A stretch of 64,000 nucleotides of DNA. It comes from Schmidtea polychroa. Lineage: Eukaryota. Numbering within the stretch: the first letter of the stretch is position 1; the number at the start of each line of letters is the position of its first letter. Below are positions 608-64,000 of the stretch, piece after piece. Below the pieces are notes generated by a model. The model saw only the letters and a program-made list of their open reading frames with translations, searched no databases and had not been told where the DNA came from. The DNA lies in the NCBI GenBank assembly GCA_044892525.1, contig CM097885.1:251162001-251226000 (forward strand). The letters run 5' to 3'. The position numbers and the translations under genes are program-made.

Positions 608-1333
608 CTACTCTAATAATAAAAACCCATCTTCTAATTTTATGTTGTTATGCAAATTGAAAGGAAATTTCTTTTTATTCAAGTCATCTTTTTTCTCTTC
701 TCCCTGTAACACTCTTGTCATGTGAATGAAATCTACATCATCTTGTTGCTTTTCTAAGAGTTTAGTCATCGACTCAGTCTTCTGTAATGAGCTGATATGT
801 CTTACTTTGGCTTTTTCTTCATTTGCGTCTTCATGTCTAGTCTGGCATTGTGCACATAGCATCCCTTTAATCCTTGATATTCCGTCCGCATTTCCATGTT
901 CCTCTCCTTTCCTATATTGAAGATCGAAATCATATCCGGAAAGGTTGGCTAGCCAGGTTTGAAATTGCGGGCTTATCGGTTTTTTTGTGTATCTCATGAA
1001 AACCAACACCTTGTGATCCGTTCGTACTACAAATGACTTTCCGTATAGATATTGTTTAAAATACATTACATATTCGTGTATAGCAAGTAACTCCTTCCTA
1101 GTTACACAATAACCTTTTTCATGCGCGGTCAAGTGTCTCGACCCATATGCAATTACCACTTCAGTACCATCTTTTTTAGCTTGACATAAAACTGCTCCGA
1201 TGGCCCCAAAACTAGCGTCTGTATCCAGAATAAAGTTTCTATCCATTCTTGGGTAATCTAGAATTGGAGCTTCACACAAATTTGTTTTAAGTAATTCAAA
1301 ACTATTGTTGCAATCTTCTGACCAATTAATCTT
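608..1333 (-). pseudogene. Ty3/Gypsy RNase H and linker
   Basis: FILDTDASFGAIGAVL..IAYGSR..ELLAI..F..RTDHK..W...L..YDF.L.YRKG..H.NAD.ISR. In frame with RT through a single TAA. Confidence 0.93.
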
Positions 1334-2662
1334 TTACTCACAGCCGGACGTAGCTGCATGTAGAGGTTCCGCAATTTTCGCATAGTCTTTTATAAACTTC
1401 CTATAGTAATTGGTCATACCTAAAAAGGATCTTAATTGTTTGGCGCATACTGGTATTTCTGCATCTTGAATCTCTTTAATCTTCTTGTCGTTCGTTTTTA
1501 TCCCACTTGCACTTACAGTGTGCCCTAGGAATGTCAATTCTTCTTTATACAGATTACATTTTTCTGGGTTAATTCTCAACCCCGCTAGTTGAATTCTTCT
1601 GAATACTTCCTCTAATCGGTTATTGTGTTCCTCTATGTCTTTTCCATAGACAAGAATGTCGTCGAGGTAGACAACAACACCCTTAAATAATATTCCATCC
1701 AACATTGAGTGCATCATTCTTTGAAACGTCGCAGGGGCTGTTGCTAGTCCAAAAGGAAGTCGGTTAAAACAAAACTGTCCTTGCCTTGTACTGAAAGCCG
1801 TGACCTCTTGAATTTCCTTCGCCATTCCAACTTGATAATATGCTTGACCTAGATCGATGGATGTGAAATATTTTGAATCTGCCAGACAATCCAGTAGAAA
1901 TCGTGTATCTGGCATTGGAAAAGATATCTTTTCAGTGATCGCATTCAACCCTCTATAGTCGACACACATCCTTATTGATCCATCTTTCTTAGCCACAATC
2001 ACTAGTGGCGCGTTCCATGCACTTTTGCATTTTCTAATAACTCTCGCTTCTAATAAGTTTGTGACAAGTTCGTCAAGCTTTTGTTCTAAATGCATTGGTT
2101 GTCTTCTTGGCTGTAACATTACAGGCCCACCTACTATATTCATTTCATGCTGAACAACTTTCGTAAACCCGAGATCAAAAGTTGAAGCCATAAAAATACC
2201 TTTGAACTTCCGTAGCAATATGTCTAACTGTTCATTCTTCCTGTCTCCAAGCATTAATAATGCTTTCTCTTCTCGTTGTGAGTCCACATATGTCCTCATT
2301 ACTTGTGACGCTTCAATATTGTCTACCTCTACCAGTTGAATACCAAATCTCTCCATTGTATCTACACCCCCAATGAAATCTGGACGTATATCTTTGACAA
2401 CTATAACATTAATAATTCTTTTTTTCCCATTCCAATCAGCTTCTATCGTCATTGCTCCTAACGGTCTTTCCATTCCCGTCGAAAATACTCCACAAAGAGA
2501 AATTGTGCTCTGCTTCAACCTCGGTTTCCCGATCTTTGTCCAACTTTTTTCACTCATAACTGATACTGACGCTCCAGAGTCCCAAAGCATGTCAATCACC
2601 GTCATGTTTATTACAATCTTACTCCACTTTCTTCTGTCTGTCGTCTCATACATCTTCTGCAT
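1334..2662 (-). pseudogene. Ty3/Gypsy aspartic protease + reverse transcriptase
   Basis: LWDSGAS protease motif; RMCVDYRGLN, IDLGQAYYQV, RLPFGL, VYLDDILV and FLGH RT motifs. Confidence 0.96.
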
Positions 2663-2691
2663 CTTGTCTTCATTTCGCTTCTTTCTACTGA

Positions 2692-3396
2692 TTATTGTGT
2701 CGACCCCACTGACGAAATGAAAGCAATGGGATCGTCCTTGTTTTTTGGTTTATCCATTGATTTTTTTATCGTTTCTTCGTAATTACTGTATAAATCTTCT
2801 GTGAAATCACCATTATTTCTTTCGTGATCTTCTTCGTAAATACATGCCACTCTCTTCTGATATCCATTTCTATTTTTAAGCAAAAAACAATCTCTGAATC
2901 CATGACCTTCTTTTCCACAGATTAGACATTTGTCTTTCATAGGACATTCAAAACGCCGGTGCCCTATTTCTCCACAACAAAAACACTGACCTGGTGTCAG
3001 TTTCACTGGATGAGGCGAATCTCTTCCTTTGCTGTCATTAAATAACCTTCTTGCAATATCTTTAAGCGATACTGTAGGTATTCTTCTCTCTGGTTCTCCT
3101 GTCTCATATCGTCCTCTATACCGCTCATTTTCATTCTTGTCTTCATTTACAATTGGTACAAACCGACCATTACCAGGTCTATTCCTCTCATGATTAATCT
3201 CTCGGTGTTCGTCGCGTTGATGTGCAGTTGTCTTCACAATTGTTCTTTGGTCTCGTCTACCCTCGAATTTACCATTTTTCATCACTGATGCGTAGGAGTC
3301 TCTTCTTATTGCATCAATATTGAATTTATTGTCATTCGTCATCTCGATCTTCTCCTGAATTTTTGCCATATCCCTGGCATCTTCAAAACTTGTCAC
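2692..3396 (-). pseudogene. gag C-terminus with two CCHC zinc knuckles
   Basis: CFCCGEIGHRRFEC and CLICGKEGHGFRDC. Confidence 0.9.
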
Positions 3397-3853
3397 TTTC
3401 CTGATAAGAATATTTCTTTTACTCTATCGTCTTTCGCTCTGTTTGAGATAATGTCTCGAACAATCTGTTCATCAGACATTCCAGAGCTAAATACACTTTT
3501 AACTAAACTTCTTACTCGTATTTCGAAGACTTGGAATCTTTCATCTCTCTCTTGCTGAATTTGAGCTAGTTCCACAATCTTGTTAGTAATGGTTTTCCTT
3601 ACTGTAAAAGTTTCTATAAACCACTCTTTTGCCATTTCATCGGTCATTATCGCTATTTTCGCCGCTTCCCATGACATCGATGCCGCATCTGTCAACAAAA
3701 GATCCAATGCGTCTACTAGACTTTGATCTTCTATTCTCAGCCATTCCATAATATCCTTTAGCCAAAGTTCGGCTTCAGATCCAACTTTTCCGTCAAACTT
3801 TCTGACATTAAAATTTAGCATCTCACGTGCTTGTTTTGACAAGGAATCTAACA
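3393..3853 (-). pseudogene. gag capsid N-terminal part
   Basis: RKFDG..AELWL..A..W gag-like pattern. The true start is probably MLDSL, downstream of the PBS, not the tracked start at 3950. Confidence 0.75.
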
Positions 3854-3898
3854 TATTCTTAGTTCCTTTCTTTTTTCCTATCGCATTGATTTCCTTGG

Positions 3899-3909
3899 CG
3901 TGGTCGCCA
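3899..3909 (-). promoter_or_regulatory. Primer-binding site TGGCGACCACG (tRNA-Arg-like 3' end)
   Basis: The minus strand reads ...CATCA-TAAC-TGGCGACCACGCC just upstream of gag: an LTR-end CA, a short spacer, then a TGG-initiated PBS. Confidence 0.7.
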
Positions 3910-5449
3910 GTTATGATGTCCTCAACTTCTAAATTCATAAAATAAATCAATAATAATTCAATAAGTTATATTTTTCAAAAACACGCTAAAACGAATATTA
4001 TTCAAACAAAACTTTACATAACTATGATAAATAATGATATCTGAATATCTTATTCATATTTAATTGAATCTTAAAAGTTTAGAAATTTAGAGTTAATATA
4101 TAAAAATGACTGCTTAAGATCTTTTGATATTAAATTAAAAAATTTAATTATATAATTAATTGTTTTTTGCTAACTTTCAAATTAGTTAACTAATTTGCAA
4201 ATTTTCAATTAAATATTTGTTTATATAACCAAATATCAAATGAAAAAATTAAAAGTTTTTATTTTATTTAGATAAATTTGTGTTAGTTTAATTGATAATT
4301 TAATAAAATTTGAAATTATGTTTTAACTGAATTAAAATTCAGGTTGAACGGATTTGATAATTAAATGATAATAATTCGAATTCTGACATACGATTATTCG
4401 GTGAAATGCTTTGTCCTCGTTAAGCATTTCCTTCGCAGTAAGTTCTATTCAATGAATAATTGCACATAAATTTCTCACTAAAATGAAGATTATCACCTTC
4501 TGAGAGTATTAATTTTTATCAGAGTTCTTATGTTGATTAACTTTTCTGGGTTATCATTTGAAATAATGAATATTTAATATTGACTTGATGTGATATTTAG
4601 GCCTTTAAGGGAATATAATGAAATTTGGTCATGATATCTACAAATGTTTTTGAATATGTTTATAATTTGAGTGGTAGAAATGATTTTGTAATGTTATTGA
4701 TTTCTAATTGACAAATTGATTAAATTCAATATCTATTCATTTTATATTTTCTTCTAAGAATATATTATCTATTGATTAATAAAAGAATTATTATTTGAAT
4801 TGGCCTCATGATCTTAATTGCCAAAATTAATGTCTCAATCATTTGCTCAAATTCCCAGGATTCTCGAGTTATATATTACTTTTACTGTCCATCATTGTCA
4901 GCTCACTTAAAATGTTTTCTTTGTCAATAAATTTGTTTTTGAAGTAATAAATAGAATTTAAAGAAAAAAATTTTTTTTTGTGAATTTTCTTTAAATTTCA
5001 GTTGTTTAAATATTCTCGTTTTTTGAGATGAATTTGTAAATTTCTATAAATTGTTTTAAAAAATTCGTTCGGTTTAATTTATAGATTTGACTTGCAACCA
5101 TATAGTAAACAGTAAATGGGCCAAATTGTCATTGAAATTTGAATCTTTTTATACATACGATCAGCAATACCAGGATATATTGTTGAACTGTCTGATAAAA
5201 CTGTATTGCATAGCATTTCATCATGCTGTTATATGCCATCTCGTGAATACCAAGAATGATTGCTGGAACAAAGCTTCTGGACATCTGAGTCTTTTATATC
5301 CAATAGTAATAACTTGACCATCTGGTAGTTAATAACTCTTCAAGTAACGATGAAAAAGCAGGAATTTGCATTTCTTACTCAAAATCAAGAACAACGTAAC
5401 ACAACTTTAATTTTTAACTTTTAGTTTTTTCTTTTTAAAGACTTATTAT

Positions 5450-53900: not shown

Positions 53901-55440
53901 CTATGTCGTATCACACACTAGATATGGTCCTTTAAACGGTCGTTGCAATTTCGTTGACAAGCTTTTTGTTGGTTCTGGTTTGTTTATATACACGAGATCT
54001 CCAATTTTAATGTCATGCGCCCTTGCGCGTTTATCATAGCATTCTTTATACGCTTCTTGATGATGCCTTATGTTAAGTCCAGCTTGGATCCATACTGACT
54101 GTAATCTTTCATGCATAGCTATTTTATAATCTGATACATCCATATATTTGGAAATAGGTGACTGAAATTCCAGATCGACTGGCATATTGTTTCGTCGTAG
54201 ATACATGAGATAAAAGGGTGTTTCTCCAGTGCTTTCATTTACTGCATTCCGGTATGCAAATAAGCATGGTTTAATGAATAAATCCCAATCCTTTTGTTTC
54301 CTATTTACATAGGATGATATCATATTAATTAGTGTCCCATTAAATCTTTCAACTAGGCCATCTGTTTGTGGATGATATGGTGAGGTACTAAGTTTCAATA
54401 TACCAAATAAATCTGCAATTGATTTAAATAATTCACTCTGAAAATTTGTTCCTTGATCTGTAAGTAATTTCTTTGGTGCTCCGTATCGAAAAATAATATT
54501 CTCCACAAATATTTTCGCAACTGTTTCTGCTTTCTGATTTGGCATTGCATAAGCTTCTGGCCATTTAGTAAGATAATCGCAAAAATCAATAATGTATTTG
54601 TTGCCATTTGTTGTTTCCGGCAATGGACCAACGATTTCCATTGGTGCCTTTGGCACTGGCATAGGCTTAAGCGGAACTTTTATTTTCCGTCCCGTATTTC
54701 GTCTTGTTAGGCATATCTCACACGTATGACACCATTGTCTGACATCTTGTTCCATCGTTTTCCAATAATATTTCTGTTTCAATCTTGATAATGTTTTTCG
54801 CGCTGATAAATGCCCTCCTAATGCTCCATCGTGATACAACAACAGTAATGCTTTTCGATGTTTTGTCGGAACAATAATTAACAAATTTTCATTTTGTACA
54901 CATTTTAACAAACCATCATGAATAATGTATTTATGGTTCTCTTCGGCAATATGTTTCCAGTCACTCTCCTTTTTGATTGAGACAGCATGTTGACGTAATT
55001 GATTTAATTCCTCGTCATTTTCCTGATCATCTTGTAATTTTTCTATATTATTTGCCGTTTTAATTGCCATGAATATTGTATTTTCGCAATTTTTCTCATC
55101 CAGCTCAACATTATTTTCTACGGGTATTCTCGACATAGCATCCGCATTTGCATTTGACTTTCCTGTACGATACTTTATCTCGAAATCATATTCTTGTAAC
55201 GCAATTGACCACCTAATTAATTTACTGGCTGAATCTCTGTGCTTCATTAGCCATTGTAACGGATTGTGATCCGTAAAGACAACAAACTTTCTGCCTACTA
55301 GGTATTGTCGAAAAGTGGTTATCCCATATACCAATGCTAACGTTTCTTTTTCGATTGTCGAATAATTTTTTTCATGAGGTTTCAATGATCTGCTGGCATA
55401 AGCAATTACATGATCTTTTTCCCCTTCTACTTGCTGTCCT
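53901..55440 (-). pseudogene. RNase H + integrase
   Basis: AYASRSL..YSTIEKE.LA..TDHNPL; H..ALGGH..C..C zinc finger; DYLTKWPEA, LLTDQG, YHPQTDGLVERFN; GPY motif. Confidence 0.96.
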
Positions 55441-55450
55441 AATACCGCGC

Positions 55451-56677
55451 CTAATGTGAAATTACTGTCATTAATATAAACGGTTTTTTAAAGTTCGGAC
55501 ATCTTAATATCGGCTGTTTTATTAAGCTTTCTTTGAGTTCATCAAACGCTTCTTGCTGAGCTGTTGTCCATTTAAATTTTGCTTGCTTTTTCAATAACAT
55601 GTTCAAAGGTTGTGCGACATGTGAGAAACGTTTAATAAACTTTCTGTAATAACTAGCTAATCCCAGAAATTGTCGAACCTGATCTACATCCTTGGGAATA
55701 GGATATTTCTTAATTTTCTCTACATTTTCTGGATTTGGTTGCAAACCTCGACGCGAAATGATATGACCCACATAAACGACTTCAGATTTTCCCCATTCTC
55801 ATTTGGAGGGTTTTATTTTTAAGTTTGCTTCTAACAATCGCTTGAATACTGTTTCCACATCCTGCAAATGTTCCTGAAAACTATTCGAAAATATTATAAT
55901 ATCGTCAATATACACTAATGCATGTGGTATATCGCGCAAAACAAAATTCATACCTCTCTGAAATGTAGCAGGTGCTCCTGTTACTCCGAATGGTAACACG
56001 TTAAACTCATATAGACCTTTCCCATCTGAAAATGCAGTTTTCCTTCTATCTTCCTCTTTGACTTTAAATTGATTGTATCCTTTATTAAGATCTATTACCG
56101 TAAAATATTGCACCTCCCCCATCTGATCGAACATTTCCTGTGGAACAGGAATAGAATATGTATCTTTTCTCGTAACTTGGTTCAATTTTCGATAGTCGAC
56201 ACAAAATCTTAAATCACCGTCCTTCTTTTTAACTACTACTATTGATGATGAGAATGGTGAGGAACTATCTCTTATTATATTGAATTCTTTCATTGCTTTG
56301 ATTTGCCGATCACTTTCTTCCTGATGTATGTATGGTATTCTATACGGCCGTAATTTTATTGGGGTTTCGCTGAGTAATGGTATTTCATGCTCAATCACCT
56401 GAGTGAGTCCCAGATCATACTCATGTTTTGCAAATACATTTCTATATTTCTTTAATAATGCACCAAATTCTTGTTTTTGCAAATCCGTCAAATCTTTGCT
56501 TGTGATCTGAGGTTCTTTATAAATTTTTATATTTCTCGGTAACTTCTGAGCTTCCTCTGATTTGATTTTTGTTAATTTTCCCAATTTGGTTTTGGGCTTT
56601 ATTTCAACGGATCTTGCACTATAATTCGCTATTCTAACTGGTACTGACTTGTTTTGGACTTTCACTACTTCGCACAC
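55451..56677 (-). pseudogene. Reverse transcriptase (+connection)
   Basis: RFCVDYRKLN, IDLNKGYNQF, LPFG, VYIDDIII. In-frame TGA at 55799-55801 (PSK*EW); frameshift at ~55465 through the TDAS motif. Confidence 0.96.
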
Positions 56678-57474
56678 ATAGGCACGTCGTATTTTTCAAC
56701 CAGCTTTTGATTTGGCTCAAATATGTACTCCTCATCTGAGACTCTCATAACATCTGCATAGTATATTACTTCGCTTTTTGGTGGTACTTCCAATGTTTGG
56801 TTTAGAAATACCTCTCCTACTTCAGGCACCATTTCACCCATTTGTCCTTTTATTAGTTTTCCAGTTCTCAGATCAAGAGAAATTCCATGTAGTTGCTCCA
56901 TGACATCCATGCCAATAAGACATTTTACAGGACTTTTTCTCATCACTGATACCCAATGAATTATTTCTTGATCTCCAATTATCAGTTTAACTTCTAATTT
57001 TCCAACAATATTTAGTGCATTATGTGACATTGATTTAATAATGTGATTCGTTGGTTTTATTTTGGCTTTCTCCTGATACGTCAAGAAGCTTTCCGCTACT
57101 ATAGTATGACTTGAGCCTGAGTCTAATAAAGCTTCCACTTTTCTCTTGTTAAATTGTATATTTATTCGAGGTTGTTTTCCTCCTACTACTGTTGTCATTA
57201 GTGCATAGCTGCATGGTAGACCAAGCATATTCTTTCTTTCAATTTCAGCACTCGTTGGTTCAATCTTCTCTAATTCTATTGTAATATTATCGACCGATTT
57301 CATCTCTTTTAGTTTTTCACTTGGATATACTGGTGCTGTTGGTCTAAATGTCGGGGTATACCATCTACTAAGAGTATCAATCCCACTTAATTTTGGCATT
57401 GGTTCAAGCAAGAACCTGGACTCTGGCTCTACTTTACTCTTTATTACACTTTTTCGAAAGTATTTATGCTCCGA
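56665..57474 (-). pseudogene. Aspartic protease region
   Basis: VEALLDSGSSHT..LIGMDVM. A 1-nt frameshift at ~56670 joins it to RT. Confidence 0.9.
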
Positions 57475-57538
57475 TTACCCGTTGTTGTTATCATCATTAT
57501 GATATTCGTTTTTATCTTCCGACTGACACGTAGATTCC

Positions 57539-59461
57539 TCACTTTTCCTTAATTTTTCTTAATTGTGCCCTTACTCTTGCCATTTCTTTAAATTGATGAT
57601 CTGTAATAAAGAATCTAGCCAACAATGGAATACAACCAATAATTAATTTCCATGACCATCCCGATATTGCATATATTCGATGTACTGACAACATTTGCGA
57701 CACTACCACCTTTGCCGTTATCACAATCTCGTAAATTCCAATTAAACCTGCACATGCTTGTCCCAAAAACATGAACTTGCCCCAAATCTTTTCCATCGTT
57801 TTATATGTAGCTCGTTTGAAATGATCAGGTGTTAGCAAATTTTCGTAATTTACTGTTCCTTCTCCATTCGGTAATACTGTGTCAATCATTTCTGAAATTA
57901 TCCGTTCCTTTTTGGATGGAAACAACAAATTCCTTTGAGCTTCTTCGATATCTTCGCTTGCATACAAGCCCATTTGTGCCATTTTGTTTAGTGATGTGAA
58001 ATTTATCAGGTATTCTAAATTTGTTAATTCTAGTTTGTCTGGAGTCTTGACCCCACGATAATCTGGTAAGGCTATCCATGAATCTGTAGCTAATCGGTAT
58101 AAAGGGGCTAATAATCGATTGCATTGCAAAAGTTTTGGTTTAGTTTGTTCATCAAGCAAGATTCTAGTTATCGGTTCCATAAATCGTACCTTTCCCCCAA
58201 AGCTTACTGGTAATTCGTTCGTACATTTTTCGTATTTGGCAATTTTCACTTTGACTTCTTTGCATTTGTAACTGTATAATGCTTCTCCAAATATTCTCGC
58301 AAACACTCCATTTTCTGATATTAGCATAGGTGCTACTAAATTTGGATTCGTAATTGCCATCGCCATCCGATTTCGGAGAATCTCTTTATTCAACTTACAA
58401 TCGTTCAGAATCATTTCTCTATATACATTTTCCATGATGTTTTGACTAAAATGAAACAAATAATCAATTTTATTATTAAAATAATGAGTAAGTTTAATGT
58501 CATCTCTATGAATTTTAATTTTTGCTTCTTCCACAACATTTCTAGACACGTAAACACCTTTATAATTTGTTACATATACCATTCGACCACATTTATTTGT
58601 GATTTCCTTTCTTATAAATCGCATTCCATCTGCTGGTAACGTAGACATTAAAACTGTTCTCATTTGTTTTGTCCATACTGGGGTTGATTTAATGGTATTA
58701 TTTGGTCTATAATTCATATTGAAATTATCTGGTTTATCTCTAAACTGTTCTCCTACTAGTTCTTTAAAGTTCATAGTTTTTAAGTGCGCTAAATTACACT
58801 TATTTGTTTCTACATTATAAACAAGAATCAATTCCCTTGTTTGACAATGTGTTTGTTTCATATTACAGAATGGATGAGTTTGTAATTTTCCCGTATCATC
58901 ATCGAAAGCTCCTTCGAACTCTCCGAACTCCGTGAGATATTCTTCTAGCACTACTGTTTGCTGAATAATTTTACCGTTCATTTTATATGGTTCACCTTCA
59001 CAGTCGCCATTTGCTTTCATAACTCCCTTTACAATTATTGTTTCTCGTATTCTATGGTTCAATTTTGCCTTTAAACGAATTTCTGGACTTATTTTTAATT
59101 CTCCTGTTTGAAATTCTGCTAGACAGTTTTCTGGAAGCACCTCGACTGGCCTAGGTATCGCATGCATTTTTATGAGTGACGTATGGCTCCATTTACCACA
59201 ATAGAATACAAATGTTGTATGTTTGACAATACACTCTCTCACTTGAGTTCTTCGCAAATCAGACTCTTGATACACATAATATTTTACGTCATTTTCTATT
59301 TTTAAACTGCTCGAATACGCACCTGGGCATTCCGACATATCTACTACCGAATAAACTTTTCCCATTTCAGTTTGGGAACAATCGTACGCAACTAAAGATG
59401 ATGTCTGTGTAATTATTGCACAAAACGTAATCACCATAAACATCGCCCATGGAAATATCAT
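57539..59461 (-). CDS. Chuvirus-like (Monjiviricetes-type, class III) fusion glycoprotein: signal peptide, ectodomain, TM
   Basis: Signal MIFPWAMFMVITFCAIITQTSS, then VAYDC, DMSEC, YCGKWSH, GDCEG.PY, CKLNKEILRN.MA.A..NP, A...GE.LY.YKC..V.V, CTNELPV, P.TRIL, GLY, WGKF..LG..CAG.IGI. This is the ordered motif series of chuvirus G. Confidence 0.88.
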   Translation of the reverse strand: MIFPWAMFMVITFCAIITQTSSLVAYDCSQTEMGKVYSVVDMSECPGAYSSSLKIENDVKYYVYQESDLRRTQVRECIVKHTTFVFYCGKWSHTSLIKMHAIPRPVEVLPENCLAEFQTGELKISPEIRLKAKLNHRIRETIIVKGVMKANGDCEGEPYKMNGKIIQQTVVLEEYLTEFGEFEGAFDDDTGKLQTHPFCNMKQTHCQTRELILVYNVETNKCNLAHLKTMNFKELVGEQFRDKPDNFNMNYRPNNTIKSTPVWTKQMRTVLMSTLPADGMRFIRKEITNKCGRMVYVTNYKGVYVSRNVVEEAKIKIHRDDIKLTHYFNNKIDYLFHFSQNIMENVYREMILNDCKLNKEILRNRMAMAITNPNLVAPMLISENGVFARIFGEALYSYKCKEVKVKIAKYEKCTNELPVSFGGKVRFMEPITRILLDEQTKPKLLQCNRLLAPLYRLATDSWIALPDYRGVKTPDKLELTNLEYLINFTSLNKMAQMGLYASEDIEEAQRNLLFPSKKERIISEMIDTVLPNGEGTVNYENLLTPDHFKRATYKTMEKIWGKFMFLGQACAGLIGIYEIVITAKVVVSQMLSVHRIYAISGWSWKLIIGCIPLLARFFITDHQFKEMARVRAQLRKIKEK

Positions 59462-59557
59462 AGTTTTTCTTAGTTCTGGCTTAACTCTTTCATTTACTCG
59501 TCTTTGGGGTGGACTCATTTCTTGCTTCTCATTTTTCTTTTCTGTTAGAGATGAACA

Positions 59558-59870
59558 CAGTGTTTTCCAACCACCTTTTTCGTTTACCCAGCTCATTAAA
59601 TATTCGTTTACTAGCCGGGCAGCGATGTCTATCAAATTTTCTAACTTGTCTGACCTTGCGAACGTATGCGTTCCAATTTCTAAAACAACATAAGTTAAAG
59701 CTATTATTATAACTTCCTTATTAATTTCATTTTTTGTTAACTTTTCAATTACTGATCTCTCGCAAAATGTATTCTCTTCGCCAAATTTCTGCATCACTTC
59801 AGGAAGCCTATTCTTCATCTCTTTAACTATTTCTTTCAGTTCATCATCTACCTCTATTTCTATGTCGAAC
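59558..59870 (-). CDS. Bcl-2-like domain within the large ORF
   Basis: BH1-like VIEKLTKNEINKEVIIIALTY and BH2-like LVNEYLMSWVNEKGGWKTL, with canonical spacing. Confidence 0.65.
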
Positions 59871-60178
59871 ATTGGATATACTGCTTTAACGAGATGTTTC
59901 AACATTTTCTTAGTTTCGTCGACGTCTTGTTCTAGCTTCACTAAATATTTCTTTATTTCATATAAAGTTCTAACTTTCTTATTTTTGATTTCACCATTTA
60001 TTTCGCCTTCAGGTACAAGTGGCTCTCCTTGTACGTCTGGTTCTGTGGACTGATCTTTGTTATCAGGATCTTTTTGCTCATTATCACTAACGATTTCATC
60101 AATTTCTTTATTTCCCTTAACTTTTTCATCTTGTTCCTCTGTGTCAGGCTTGTTAGACTCAATATTTACTTCTAAACT

Positions 60179-60460
60179 CACTCCTTTTACTACGACTATA
60201 TGGTTCACTAAATATCCCACTCGTCCATCTCCGATCAAATATCCATTTTCATCCAGCTCTTGTGGTACACACCCACAATCATATAAGTATTCATCATCGT
60301 CAAGTTCTTCACCTTTGTACATTATTATAATAATTCCATCTTTTCCCAGCGTTTCAGCCGCTCTCTTCCGCAATTTTCGGACCTTTGCACACCAATGCTC
60401 GTCTACATATTCCGTTTTGCCATATCCCTCATAATCCAATGCTATCAAAAATGGCTTTAA
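60179..60460 (-). CDS. Ubiquitin-like domain within the large ORF
   Basis: VRKLRKRAAETLG..IIMYKGEELDDDEYLYDCG..HIVVVKG vs ubiquitin IENVKAKIQDKEG..LIFAGKQLEDGRTLSDYN..HLVLRLRGG. Confidence 0.55.
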
Positions 60461-60629
60461 CTCTACTCTTGCCTTTCGGAGCTCCGTGCCCAATCTTTGC
60501 AATAAACTTCTTAATAACTTGGCATATCTGGTTTTCACATGTAAATATGGTCGTAAGTAGTAGGATGTGTCACCACTGGCACATGTCACCTCTGGCACAC
60601 CCCCCCGGGGGGTAAACGAAATTTTTTTT

Positions 60630-60925
60630 TCAAGGTCAAATTTTAAACAAAGACATATGACTCATCAAGGTCATTGAAACAAAGACCATGACTCATCCGA
60701 TGACTCATCAAATTTTTCAAGGTCATTTAAACAAAGACCATGACTCATCCGATGACTCACCAAGGTCATTTTCAAGGGCATATGACTCATCCAATGAGTC
60801 ATAAAAATTTTCAAGGTCATTTAAACAAAGACCGTGACTCATCAAGGTCATTTTCAAGGTCGCATGACTCACCCAAGGTCATTCTCAAGGTCATGTGAGT
60901 CATCGCGATGAGTCATCAAGGTCAT
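60630..60925. promoter_or_regulatory. Homotypic array of 11 TGA(C/G)TCA and 9 CAAGGTCA motifs
   Basis: Counted directly. TGACTCA/TGAGTCA at 60658, 60689, 60701, 60741, 60753, 60783, 60795, 60835, 60865, 60896, 60909. CAAGGTCA at 60631, 60666, 60718, 60761, 60812, 60843, 60874, 60886, 60917. Confidence 0.8.
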
Positions 60926-61752
60926 ATTATTATTTTTTAAAAATATTATTATTTTTATTATTATTTTTAAAAAATATTATTATTTTATTTTTAATTTTTT
61001 CAAAGTTCTCGCCAACGAAAATTATTCATCGATAGCTCATTTTAAAGCTCAATCCAAGACCTTTCGAATGAGCCATATATCTTGTTATTANNNNNNNNNN
61101 NNNNNNNNNNNNNNNNNNNNNNNNNNNNNNNNNNNNNNNNNNNNNNNNNNNNNNNNNNNNNNNNNNNNNNNNNNNNNNNNNNNNNNNNNNNNNNNNNNNN
61201 NNNNNNNNNNNNNNNNNNNNNNNNNNNNNNNNNNNNNNNNNNNNNNNNNNNAGTCTATCCGACAAAATATTTTGTCCCCCTATGGGTAATGCTCACAAGG
61301 GTACTGTCACGNNNNNNNNNNNNNNNNNNNNNNNNNNNNNNNNNNNNNNNNNNNNNNNNNNNNNNNNNNNNNNNNNNNNNNNNNNNNNNNNNNNNNNNNN
61401 NNNNNNNNNNNNNNNNNNNNNNNNNNNNNNNNNNNNNNNNNNNNNNNNNNNNNNNNNNNNNNNNNNNNNNNNNNNNNNNNNNNNNNNNNNNNNNNNNNNN
61501 NNNNNNNNNNNNNNNNNNNNNNNNNNNNNNNNNNNNNNNNNNNNNNNNNNNNNNNNNNNNNNNNNNNNNNNNNNNNNNNNNNNNNNNNNNNNNNNNNNNN
61601 NNNNNNNNNNNNNNNNNNNNNNNNNNNNNNNNNNNNNNNNNNNNNNNNNNNNNNNNNNNNNNNNAATATCATTATTATTACTTTTATTATTATGAAACAT
61701 ATATATAAATAGGTCTAATAACTTCATTTACAACATTCACAAATATTCATCG

Positions 61753-62321
61753 ATGTCTTCAAACGATCCACAGGTTTGATGTTATAATTATTTAGTAATT
61801 TAATTATTTTAAATAAGGTACAAGAATTGTCTATTGATTGGGATCATTCCTTTTTAATAATAGATAAACTTCTAACAATAAATGATGAAGATTATATATT
61901 CCTGGCCAAAATAAATAAATCTTTCAAACATCAAGTAATTCAAAATCTATTTGATAAGTTCGGCTTCAATATATCGATGTTGAAATTAACCAGCTGTATA
62001 ATATCTATAAATAATATTAACCATACAGAAATTAACATGCTTAAGGTTTTCTGGATATGTATGGATTTCAGGTTCGGAAAATATCGCGAGCTTATTGAAA
62101 TCTTCCTTCTTAATGCATATAAACTTGGTATTAAAATACATAATTTACTGAATGAAGTCAGAAAACAGTTTATTACATGTTGTATATGTCAAATTAGAGA
62201 AGTTTCTATTCTATATCTGCCTTGTGGTCATATCATTATTTGTTCCTTATGTTTGGAAAACTGTAGTAGATGTCAGAGTTGTGGTGTCATAATCGATGAA
62301 TCTCATTCAGTGTATTTTTGA
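61753..62321 (+). CDS. IAP-type C3HC4 RING protein (BIR-less), two exons (61753-61773, 61818-62321)
   Basis: C-terminal CCICQIREVSILYLPCGHIIICSLCLENCSRCQSC..VYF*. The ATG exon MSSNDPQ joins in frame across a 44-nt GT..AG intron. Confidence 0.8.
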
Positions 62322-62548
62322 AATAAATGTTGTAAAACTCCTACTTATTATTATTATTATTATTATATAATTTCAACTTTCTATCACAAATAACTAAAAA
62401 CATAGTTGATTATTATAAAATTTATAACACAAAATTATACCATAAAAAGTTGACAAACAAAAATAACTAAATATTTACAAATTTTTATTCAACATCGTAT
62501 TTACACAAATATAATGTCAATGTTAAATAATTGGCCCAAAATATAACT

Positions 62549-64000
62549 CTAAATTATTGAATTGAATATTTGATCGAATTGTTGATCTCGAATGACAGGA
62601 TCCGTTTCAGGCATGACGATATTACCACTACCATCTAAGACATCAACCCCTCTATAATGTCCATATGCAAAACTTGAGTTTTTCCCTACCCAAGCTCTCT
62701 TATCGTCGTGATTATTTAAAGCTATTTTTGAGTTTTTAAAAGTAAATAGCTGATGATTCCGGGTTCCTATTCTAGTTTGAGGAACCGACATGACTGTGTT
62801 GTTGTTATAGCAGTCTAAATAAGATTGATGTTTGATGTCGGTCCCCGGTAATTTTACGCCCTTAGCCCTCATTGTTGACTTATTTCCTAATAGGCTGTAA
62901 CATTTAGGACGTAAGAAAACCCATTCACTATATATCCTAACCCTTTACTCTCATCCTTAAACTTGCCTATAACTGAGTCAAGTCGCCTGGAATATAAAGG
63001 ATGAGAGGGATCGTAATTTGAAGTATCTAAAAGGTCATCCGAAATCATCGCTTGTAATAAGATATCTAATTTAAAATTTTTAACCTCTAAAAAGAAAGAG
63101 TCGGTATCACCCGCTACTAAATTAATTTCACAATTATAAATATCCCGATATCGTTGTAGCTCTATATACTGTAACTGATACATCCGTAGTTTGGATAGAT
63201 CCAGTACTGATTGTCCGATGTAGCTGGGTCTATCCAAACATATAGAGTCCTTATTGAGATGCGCGGCAAACAGATCATCAGCTATTTCAATTGTTTTTCT
63301 GAATGCCGGTTTTGACGAATATGTAATTAATTTTTCAGATGAATTACATAGTCGCAAATTCATCCTCTTTTTAAGGTTCTCTACGGATTTACCGTACAGG
63401 CTATTATTATATAATTTAAATAAATCTCTATATATTTCACTAACTGCATTAGCACGCAAGTTAGTGTTTTTATCGATATAATGTTTAAAGATATGATTTT
63501 GTTTATATTTTATAGCTCTGTGTATATTTACAACCTTAGCCCCAAGTGAAAGATAAAGCCTGAGAAGCCTCCAATGAAGAACATAGTTCTTCTTTGGATA
63601 ATGCGTGAGCATTAGCTTCTCAACTTTTGAGTTAGGTGGGCACATCTTTTCCGGTCCAATCGGAAAGTCATTTAAAAAATCATGGAAATCAATCGGAATC
63701 TCGATATCAACTTCCATAGTATATCCATATGGAAGTGTTTCGATATCCGCAACATTCACACACTCATCCAAAACTTCATTCAAGCCATCATACACCCAAG
63801 TAAAATCACCATAGGGAAGACTTTGGCTAAGAGCCCAACCATACAGATTATTTATATCAATATACAATAATTCTGTATCATCTGAAGCAGCCGTGTAATG
63901 TTTGTTAACAAATGTTAACCCACCCCGTATTCCTCCCTCGTAAAAATTGAACATTTCCATGTCCTGTAAAAGTTCTATGGGTTCCGTTAATGTCATAAGC
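62549..64000 (-). pseudogene. Protein-primed family B DNA polymerase, C-terminal part, frameshift near 62930
   Basis: GIRGG, YIDINNLYG, KLYNNSLYGK, AGDTDS, GKFKDE, then (shifted frame) FLRPKCY, RAKGV. Confidence 0.93.

Follow-up and report, generated by a model that had tools for sequence, protein, structure and literature searches.

The locus analysed here raises the question of whether a viral fusion glycoprotein found next to the pol region of a planarian retrotransposon is a captured gene of its own or a working part of the element. The window, a stretch of 64,000 nucleotides from Schmidtea polychroa, contains on its minus strand (59461-57539) 640 codons free of stops, which the original prediction had read as a chuvirus-type fusion glycoprotein (G) with signal peptide and transmembrane segment. 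This part was borne out. The window G matches the Pfam family Monjiviricetes_fusion (PF24664) with an E-value of 1.2e-84 (285 bits, cut-off 27), a sequence match that is far above chance. Its signal comprises 22 hydrophobic residues starting at the Met at 59461, and mature G, beginning at approximately 59395, has 618 aa and 16 cysteines, 14 of them N-terminal to the anchor. An anchor-like stretch lies near 57763-57700, and a GWSW motif is found at 57661. The AYDC or AFDC start of mature G aligns with the start of stand-alone Gs.

The view of G as a separate gene did not hold, as the frame continues for 400 codons further upstream, resulting in a stop-to-stop frame of 1,040 codons (60661-57539, minus strand), and as G is an internal polyprotein domain in other copies. 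It was also predicted that G ends about 130 nt before the protease frame. Counted on the translation, 137 nt indeed separate the G stop of the window copy from the first ATG of the frame that contains the protease, but this stop is due to a frameshift of that copy. The features of the locus are compiled in Table 1.

Table 1. Features of the element copy in the window and of the insert that interrupts it.
Feature	Position	Strand	Basis and remarks
Signal sequence, predicted class III (gB/chuvirus-type) fusion glycoprotein G, membrane anchor	57539..59461	minus	PF24664, model of the reference copy L053, Foldseek; internal polyprotein segment in other copies
Internal signal sequence	59396..59461	minus	Hydropathy; putative cleavage before LVAYDC
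Bcl-2-like domain, in frame directly upstream of G	59540..59840	minus	PF00452 E 0.004, under the curated cut-off
Acidic linker of the polyprotein, separated from gag by the insert	59841..60555	minus	Frame translation, hydropathy, copy alignment
Tail remnant and aspartic protease (LLDSG), then spacer labelled dUTPase-like by analogy with Burro	56665..57474	minus	PF00077 E 4e-7
Reverse transcriptase, RNase H, integrase; interrupted here by frameshifts and stops	53901..56695	minus	Pfam, copy alignment
Integrase end, second signal, all-beta ectodomain of about 330 aa (possibly FN3-like), anchor	52506..53900	minus	Hydropathy, weak predicted-fold matches; polyprotein C-terminus in unbroken copies
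ORF2, ISG20/ISG20L2-like DEDDh exonuclease domain	50628..52104	minus	PDB matches; 3' end enters N in the window; 496 aa in other copies
3' UTR end and polypurine tract, no LTR immediately behind	47113..47312	minus	Copy comparison
Polypurine tract and LTR of the same family (88-92% to other copies)	28825..29913	minus	Copy comparison
Polinton-like insert, about 11.3 kb, extending beyond the window end	60556..64000		AGTAG ends, 6-bp target duplication, terminal inverted repeats
RING ORF within the insert	61788-62321		Part of the Polinton-like insert
Frames within the insert, presumably DNA-polymerase-B-like	62549-63999		Motifs

In a genome search with the G region, 40 of 938 candidates were scored, all of them 99-100% identical over 1.8 kb. 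Among the 39 other copies, 24 were analysed, and one of these, a segmental duplicate of the window, was left out (n = 23). The copies were picked as best matches to G, a selection that favours an intact G. A typical copy has 16-17 kb, with LTRs of about 0.9 kb that have TG..CA ends, and 4-bp target duplications; the LTR pairs are 96-100% identical, mostly above 99%. Four of the 23 copies contain a single open frame of 3,435-3,437 codons, in which Gag, zinc knuckles, a Bcl-2-like domain, a signal, G, its anchor, protease-reverse transcriptase-RNase H-integrase (PR-RT-RH-IN), a second signal, a possibly FN3-like ectodomain, and a last anchor follow one another. The Pfam scan of reference copy L053 detected the zinc knuckles, a ubiquitin-like and a Bcl-2-like domain (both weak), G, protease, RT, RNase H, and integrase, and Retrotrans_gag was scored in a sister family. 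The sister family has a frame of 3,334-3,361 codons in all eight copies examined, which were chosen for long frames. The genome contains two further families of identical layout, with G 70% and 82% identical, and 187 exact matches to the pre-protease junction pattern, which suggests a family size of about 190 copies.

The assignment to Ty3/Gypsy was confirmed. The other copies have LTRs, target duplication, primer site, and polypurine tract, as expected for Metaviridae, and the element has the order PR-RT-RH-IN with a Gypsy-type RT whose best solved matches are 4ol8 and the Ty3-G Gag-Pol chain 7q5b (E about 1e-78); BEL/Pao families were absent from the element's Pfam matches. Behind the 5' LTR, 31 of the 33 copies from three families have a primer site that is complementary to the host tRNA-Trp. 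Genes for this primer tRNA form a tandem array with a 284-bp period at G000:C4:55.02 Mb (L092), with 821 pattern matches genome-wide.

The copy in the window is itself dead. Relative to L053, its frame shifts near 57550, 56670, and 55460, and stop codons interrupt it near 57480, 55800, and 53900. The frameshift near 57550 is found in the window copy alone among the 21 aligned copies that span the region from the anchor to the protease site, and all 21 other copies (20 aligned copies and L053) continue from G into the protease without a change of frame. The G frame of the window copy thus stops ahead of the protease because of its own frameshift. In addition, the Polinton-like insert at 60556 interrupts the element's frame, and part of gag continues about 11.3 kb further on. 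The polymerase label given to frames in this insert is what we take from their motifs, the Pfam scan being without such a match. As gag lies upstream of G in other copies and is separated from it only by the insert in the window copy, the predicted 5' position of G had to be abandoned; "stand-alone" and "5' position" are both artefacts of the window copy, caused by its own frameshift and the Polinton-like insert. A 5' LTR of this copy was not found in the 20 kb examined beyond the window, and the LTR listed last for the element in Table 1 may or may not be its own 3' LTR.

Several other features were observed around this copy. The region from 28669 to past 64000 recurs in inverted orientation at G000:C1:254.93-254.98 Mb, as a nearly identical duplicate (mostly 98-100%) of 46 kb or more that includes the broken copy together with its Polinton-like insert. 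A 132-bp tandem repeat with 83 copies occupies 30156-41061. Further mobile elements are a second, distant Gypsy element with gag, RT, and RH (608-3965), a hAT transposase remnant (26960-28836), and a DDE_3 (Tc1-like) transposase fragment (48761-49324).

It was further predicted that G remained open while pol decayed. The 640 codons without a stop and the breaks in pol are indeed present. Among the 23 aligned copies, there were 0.35 breaks per 1000 codons in G, 0.64 in gag, 0.84 in the integrase, and 2.47 in RT-RH, but the low rate in G is not to be taken at face value because the copies were chosen by their match to G. As a separate observation, RT-RH accounts for 21 of the 54 breaks outside G on 15% of those codons (binomial p 1e-5, post hoc), and all sites differ.

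A subfamily without pol (L047/L048 and L035/L036) has an in-frame deletion of 3,510 bp, which begins immediately ahead of the protease, ends within the second signal, and leaves gag, G, and the second membrane protein in frame. Its junction has 7 exact matches, versus 187 for the normal junction. An origin of these copies by splicing was considered and set aside, as the junction lies in a 12-base repeat common to both sides, which fits template switching better. With regard to a skipping of G, no such joint on L053 was found among the matches listed from three presumed-RNA contig sets and one unlabelled set, and such contigs reveal neither level, strand, nor absence.

We modelled the region of L053 that matches the window G with AlphaFold, using an alignment of 81 rows. 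The predicted monomer had a mean pLDDT of 90 and a pTM of 0.67. Its best solved matches were herpesvirus gB chains, mostly in the post-fusion state (Foldseek E 6e-15; by VIA, Z 10.6 with 419 residues aligned and an rmsd of 10.3). The best predicted viral matches were chuvirus-type Gs (E 1e-43, TM up to 0.69), followed by xinmo-, nyami-, and rhabdo-like Gs. Chains of VSV G, gp64, or thogotoviruses did not occur among the PDB matches listed, which gB filled. The cysteines of G are kept across the aligned Gs. In agreement with the original prediction, profile search and structure prediction thus both match G to chuvirus G and gB, and by its model G is a chuvirus-like class III fusogen with a gB-like fold.

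To judge from its substitutions, G is also under purifying selection. Between families 1 and 3, in which G is 82% identical, its dN/dS is 0.057, and G is the best-kept domain of this pair; the comparison with family 2 was saturated in eight of nine domains. Within the family, the pN/pS of G variants is 0.12 for those shared among copies versus 0.39 for private ones. Any stop or frameshift ahead of pol would be selected against in a single frame, so that it was in principle possible that G is a passenger without present function, retained only because breaks in it would stop the translation of pol. This would leave the constraint on amino acids unexplained, as the dN between families 1 and 3 is lower in G (0.12) than in gag (0.19) or the protease (0.20), whereas the adjoining linkers drift (0.36-0.39). 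Moreover, G is kept in frame in the subfamily that has no pol. We therefore regard a mere passenger as improbable.

A full HMMER protein search with G found 1,395 proteins at E 0.001, whereas a word-index search had found only six fragments. The top HMMER matches were long unnamed polyproteins with a G that is 26-44% identical; most of them have a protease behind G, and several also contain RT, RNase H, and integrase. A search with the RT added five more polyproteins. For an unrooted G tree, 44 of 165 matching proteins were dropped for short cover and cluster duplicates were removed, leaving 116 rows. In this tree, 17 polyprotein rows lie on one side of a branch with an SH-aLRT of 97 (97-100). 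The Gs of Wufeng shrew chuvirus 2, Tacheng tick virus 4, and Guangdong red-banded snake chuvirus-like virus lie outside this clade, and so does a BEL-linked G. The latter (P0070, with G after DUF5641) served as a stand-in for the Anakin elements, and forcing it into the polyprotein clade was rejected in an AU test with 22 rows (p-AU 6e-42), so that the predicted separation from Bel/Pao-linked G was supported.

In the 13 proteins that have both domains, the starred groups were concordant in the RT tree and a quick G tree. In the RT tree (93 rows, after removal of 31 of 124 rows that were gene models of one arachnid), the G-bearing rows are scattered and do not form one clade; gains and losses of G cannot be counted on this tree, because many of the G-less neighbours are N-terminally short. 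This scatter and three divergent members with a very distant G speak against a single origin. Because the G and RT trees agree, we see these sequence comparisons as pointing to an old partnership of G and RT that is separate from the BEL-linked G and not a recent capture. As side observations, the related polyproteins P0154, P0007, and P0009 contain several aspartic-protease-like domains (up to seven stretches in P0154) and ankyrin repeats, and P0012, which carries the label of a bacterial MAG, is probably a misbinned animal element.

These data also bear on the reading with which the analysis of the locus had started, namely that a chuvirus gene was captured recently and sits as a separate G gene on the 5' side of pol. 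Chuvirus Gs are the closest named viral matches, and the frame of the window copy does stop ahead of the protease. Yet G is in frame with gag and pol in other copies, the starred groups agree in both trees, and G occurs in long frames of about 17 polyproteins from other sources, in most cases before a protease; these are down to 26% identical and form one clade (SH-aLRT 97-100). The element G shares only about 25% identity with the named chuvirus Gs, the polyprotein Gs are a deep clade of their own, and the trees are unrooted, which leaves the predicted capture from a chuvirus putative. We consider a recent stand-alone capture to be very improbable.

The polyproteins of both families show four hydrophobic peaks, which lie before G, after G, after the integrase, and near the end of the frame. 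Downstream of the integrase, a stretch of about 330 residues lies between a second signal and a strong anchor. Glycosylation sequons number 11 in the 335 aa of this second ectodomain, compared to 2 in the 1070 aa from gag to the Bcl-2-like domain and 8 in the 1295 aa of pol. As G itself has only 2 N-glycosylation sequons in 540 aa, sequon density is no marker of every luminal part. The model of the second ectodomain had a pLDDT of 42; its matches to FN3 chains were at E 4e-4 or weaker, and the top Atlas score was 0.90 with low recognition. We take a FN3-like fold as a lead from these predictions. The ectodomain is 35% identical between families, versus 70% for G, and by sequence it had no relatives outside the sister family among the proteins compared. 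In 15 of 21 polyproteins listed, one or more hydrophobic segments follow the integrase, with a signal-plus-anchor pair in about 10; five had none, and one had no integrase motif. The most distant G-bearing polyproteins, P0218, P0221, and P0243, end soon after the integrase, with no second membrane segment in the available part.

Matches of the Bcl-2-like domain to PF00452 were all under the cut-off (E 1e-4 in family 3, range 0.01-1e-4). Its matches in the PDB were weak (best E 0.13), and all 24 were chains of the Bcl-2 family. The ubiquitin-like matches (E 0.057 and 0.0013) were under the cut-off as well. ORF2 matched ISG20L2 (7yw5, E 2e-10) and ISG20 (1wlj, E 3e-7) and retains the acidic and His motifs of a DEDDh exonuclease. 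In two copies of the sister family, no frame of more than 150 aa was found downstream of the polyprotein.

Our main reading, to which we assign a probability of roughly 0.6, is that the G region represents the envelope portion of a multicopy Ty3/Gypsy element, whose single frame codes for Gag, a gB-type fusogen, Pol, and a further membrane protein, and that the polyprotein would be threaded through the ER to give enveloped, fusing particles. As the hydrophobic segments alternate, the part from Gag to Bcl-2 would remain cytosolic, the first signal would direct G into the lumen, and the anchor of G would bring PR-RT-RH-IN back to the cytosol. The second signal would then direct the possibly FN3-like ectodomain into the lumen, until the last anchor halts transfer. 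Host signal peptidase would release the N-termini of both ectodomains, and the element's protease would cut the cytosolic parts. The spent signal would keep Gag at the membrane, and the tail of G would do the same for Pol, which would thus enter particles together with Env and not as a Gag-Pol fusion. It speaks against this scheme that a single frame implies equal amounts of Gag, Env, and Pol, which is unusual for the Ty3/Gypsy group. Trimers of G would fuse membranes, with the second glycoprotein as the likely attachment or shielding partner, and the Bcl-2-like domain and the ISG20-like nuclease may blunt host defences. The main structural risk is a second, weaker hydrophobic stretch behind the anchor of G (Kyte-Doolittle 1.35 versus 2.19); if it crossed the membrane, Pol would be luminal and the scheme would fail.

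The same polyprotein could also serve within the cell, with G and the second membrane protein tethering assembly to ER or vesicle membranes or fusing inner membranes, and no spread from cell to cell. Copies inserted in planarian stem cells could be passed on without leaving the cell, and selection on G indicates use and not infectivity; a passage in PMC13524379 calls the extent of infectivity of such ENVs unclear. A complete predicted class III ectodomain with kept cysteines would nevertheless be costly as a mere tether, and the fast change of the second ectodomain relative to G fits a host-facing role, and we rate a purely intracellular function as rather unlikely. The particle-forming reading can be extended to two-glycoprotein enveloped retroelements built like a flavivirus polyprotein, with a frame woven four times through the ER, a class III fusogen, a FN3-like attachment protein, Pol packaged on the tail of the fusogen, cell-to-cell spread in planarians, and a defective subfamily without pol riding along. 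As a whole, this extended picture is speculative, and we regard it as possible but doubtful.

The layout as such had been thought to be unreported, but selected sections of two publications, to which the following comparisons refer, describe it. In PMC6431247 (Arkhipova and Yushenova 2019), the planarian element Burro/GYPSM1 has an env in frame between BCL2 and protease, with matches to mononegavirus fusion proteins, an arrangement described there as the first of its kind. GAG-ENV-POL Ty3/Gypsy elements with a gB-type ENV in Platyhelminthes, Nematoda, and Bryozoa are the subject of PMC13524379 (Chary and Hayashi, eLife 2026), which also notes chuvirus-like glycoproteins adjoining gypsy POL and lists six Schmidtea elements. 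A gag-env-pol layout with a chuvirus-like G before pol is thus already published for flatworms.

Like the flatworm errantiviruses of PMC13524379, whose listed spans are 14.5-18 kb, the window family is a multicopy Ty3/Gypsy lineage with gag-env-pol order, and it has an HSV/gB-type ectodomain between signal and anchor. By eye, Smed_errantivirus_1 differs from the window family at 28 of 156 residues of domain I (about 82% identity) and Smed_errantivirus_2 from the sister family at 4 of 156 (97%). Based on this comparison of the ENV by eye, the window family would be a sister lineage that is identical to none of the elements listed. The primer tRNA of the Smed elements is given as "none", in contrast to tRNA-Trp in the window family, and the main text of PMC13524379 contains no mention of polyprotein, in-frame, fibronectin, exonuclease, or Bcl. 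Burro, as described in PMC6431247, resembles the window family in that one polyprotein contains Gag, CCHC knuckles, ubiquitin-like and BCL2-like domains, env, and then PR-RT-RH-IN, with the ubiquitin and Bcl-2 matches being under the cut-off here. In contrast to Burro with more than 30 kb and 4,873 aa, the window family has 16-17 kb, LTRs of about 0.9 kb, and a frame of 3,437 codons, and its Pfam scan gave no match to Burro-type MATH, BIR, or ankyrin cargo. The window family works like Burro but is not Burro proper. The Burro section of PMC6431247 mentions no post-integrase membrane protein or exonuclease ORF. BURRO1 RNA rises upon piwi knockdown (PMC8532177).

The Anakin BEL/Pao elements of mosquitoes (PMC7642597, PMC10084718) carry the same glycoprotein family, PF24664, in an LTR element of another superfamily, and the sections compared of PMC10084718 report no clear Gypsy capture in arthropods. 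Unlike Anakin, the element has no BEL/Pao pol, and its G lies in a clade apart from the DUF5641-linked G. With the G of Chuviridae and Jingchuvirales it shares the cysteine pattern, the predicted fold, and a C-terminal hydrophobic region, but the viral G is a stand-alone protein of about 650 aa and distant in sequence. In the text passages of the flatworm-element literature that were searched, we found no description of the post-integrase membrane protein, the ISG20-like exonuclease gene, the tRNA-Trp primer, or the subfamily without pol.

The family therefore adds one member to the published Gypsy elements with a chuvirus-like G before pol. Its less familiar feature is the second predicted membrane protein, which would likely help particles to attach to cells. 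The possible importance lies in the way a single frame can function with an envelope lying between gag and pol, a point that the portions of flatworm-element literature compared do not address. RNAi tools exist for planarians, and as the family is compact and young, with about 190 copies in a planarian, topology, cleavage, and cell-to-cell spread are testable. If true, it would be new for LTR elements that a class III fusogen is accompanied by an attachment protein of its own and that Pol is packaged via Env.
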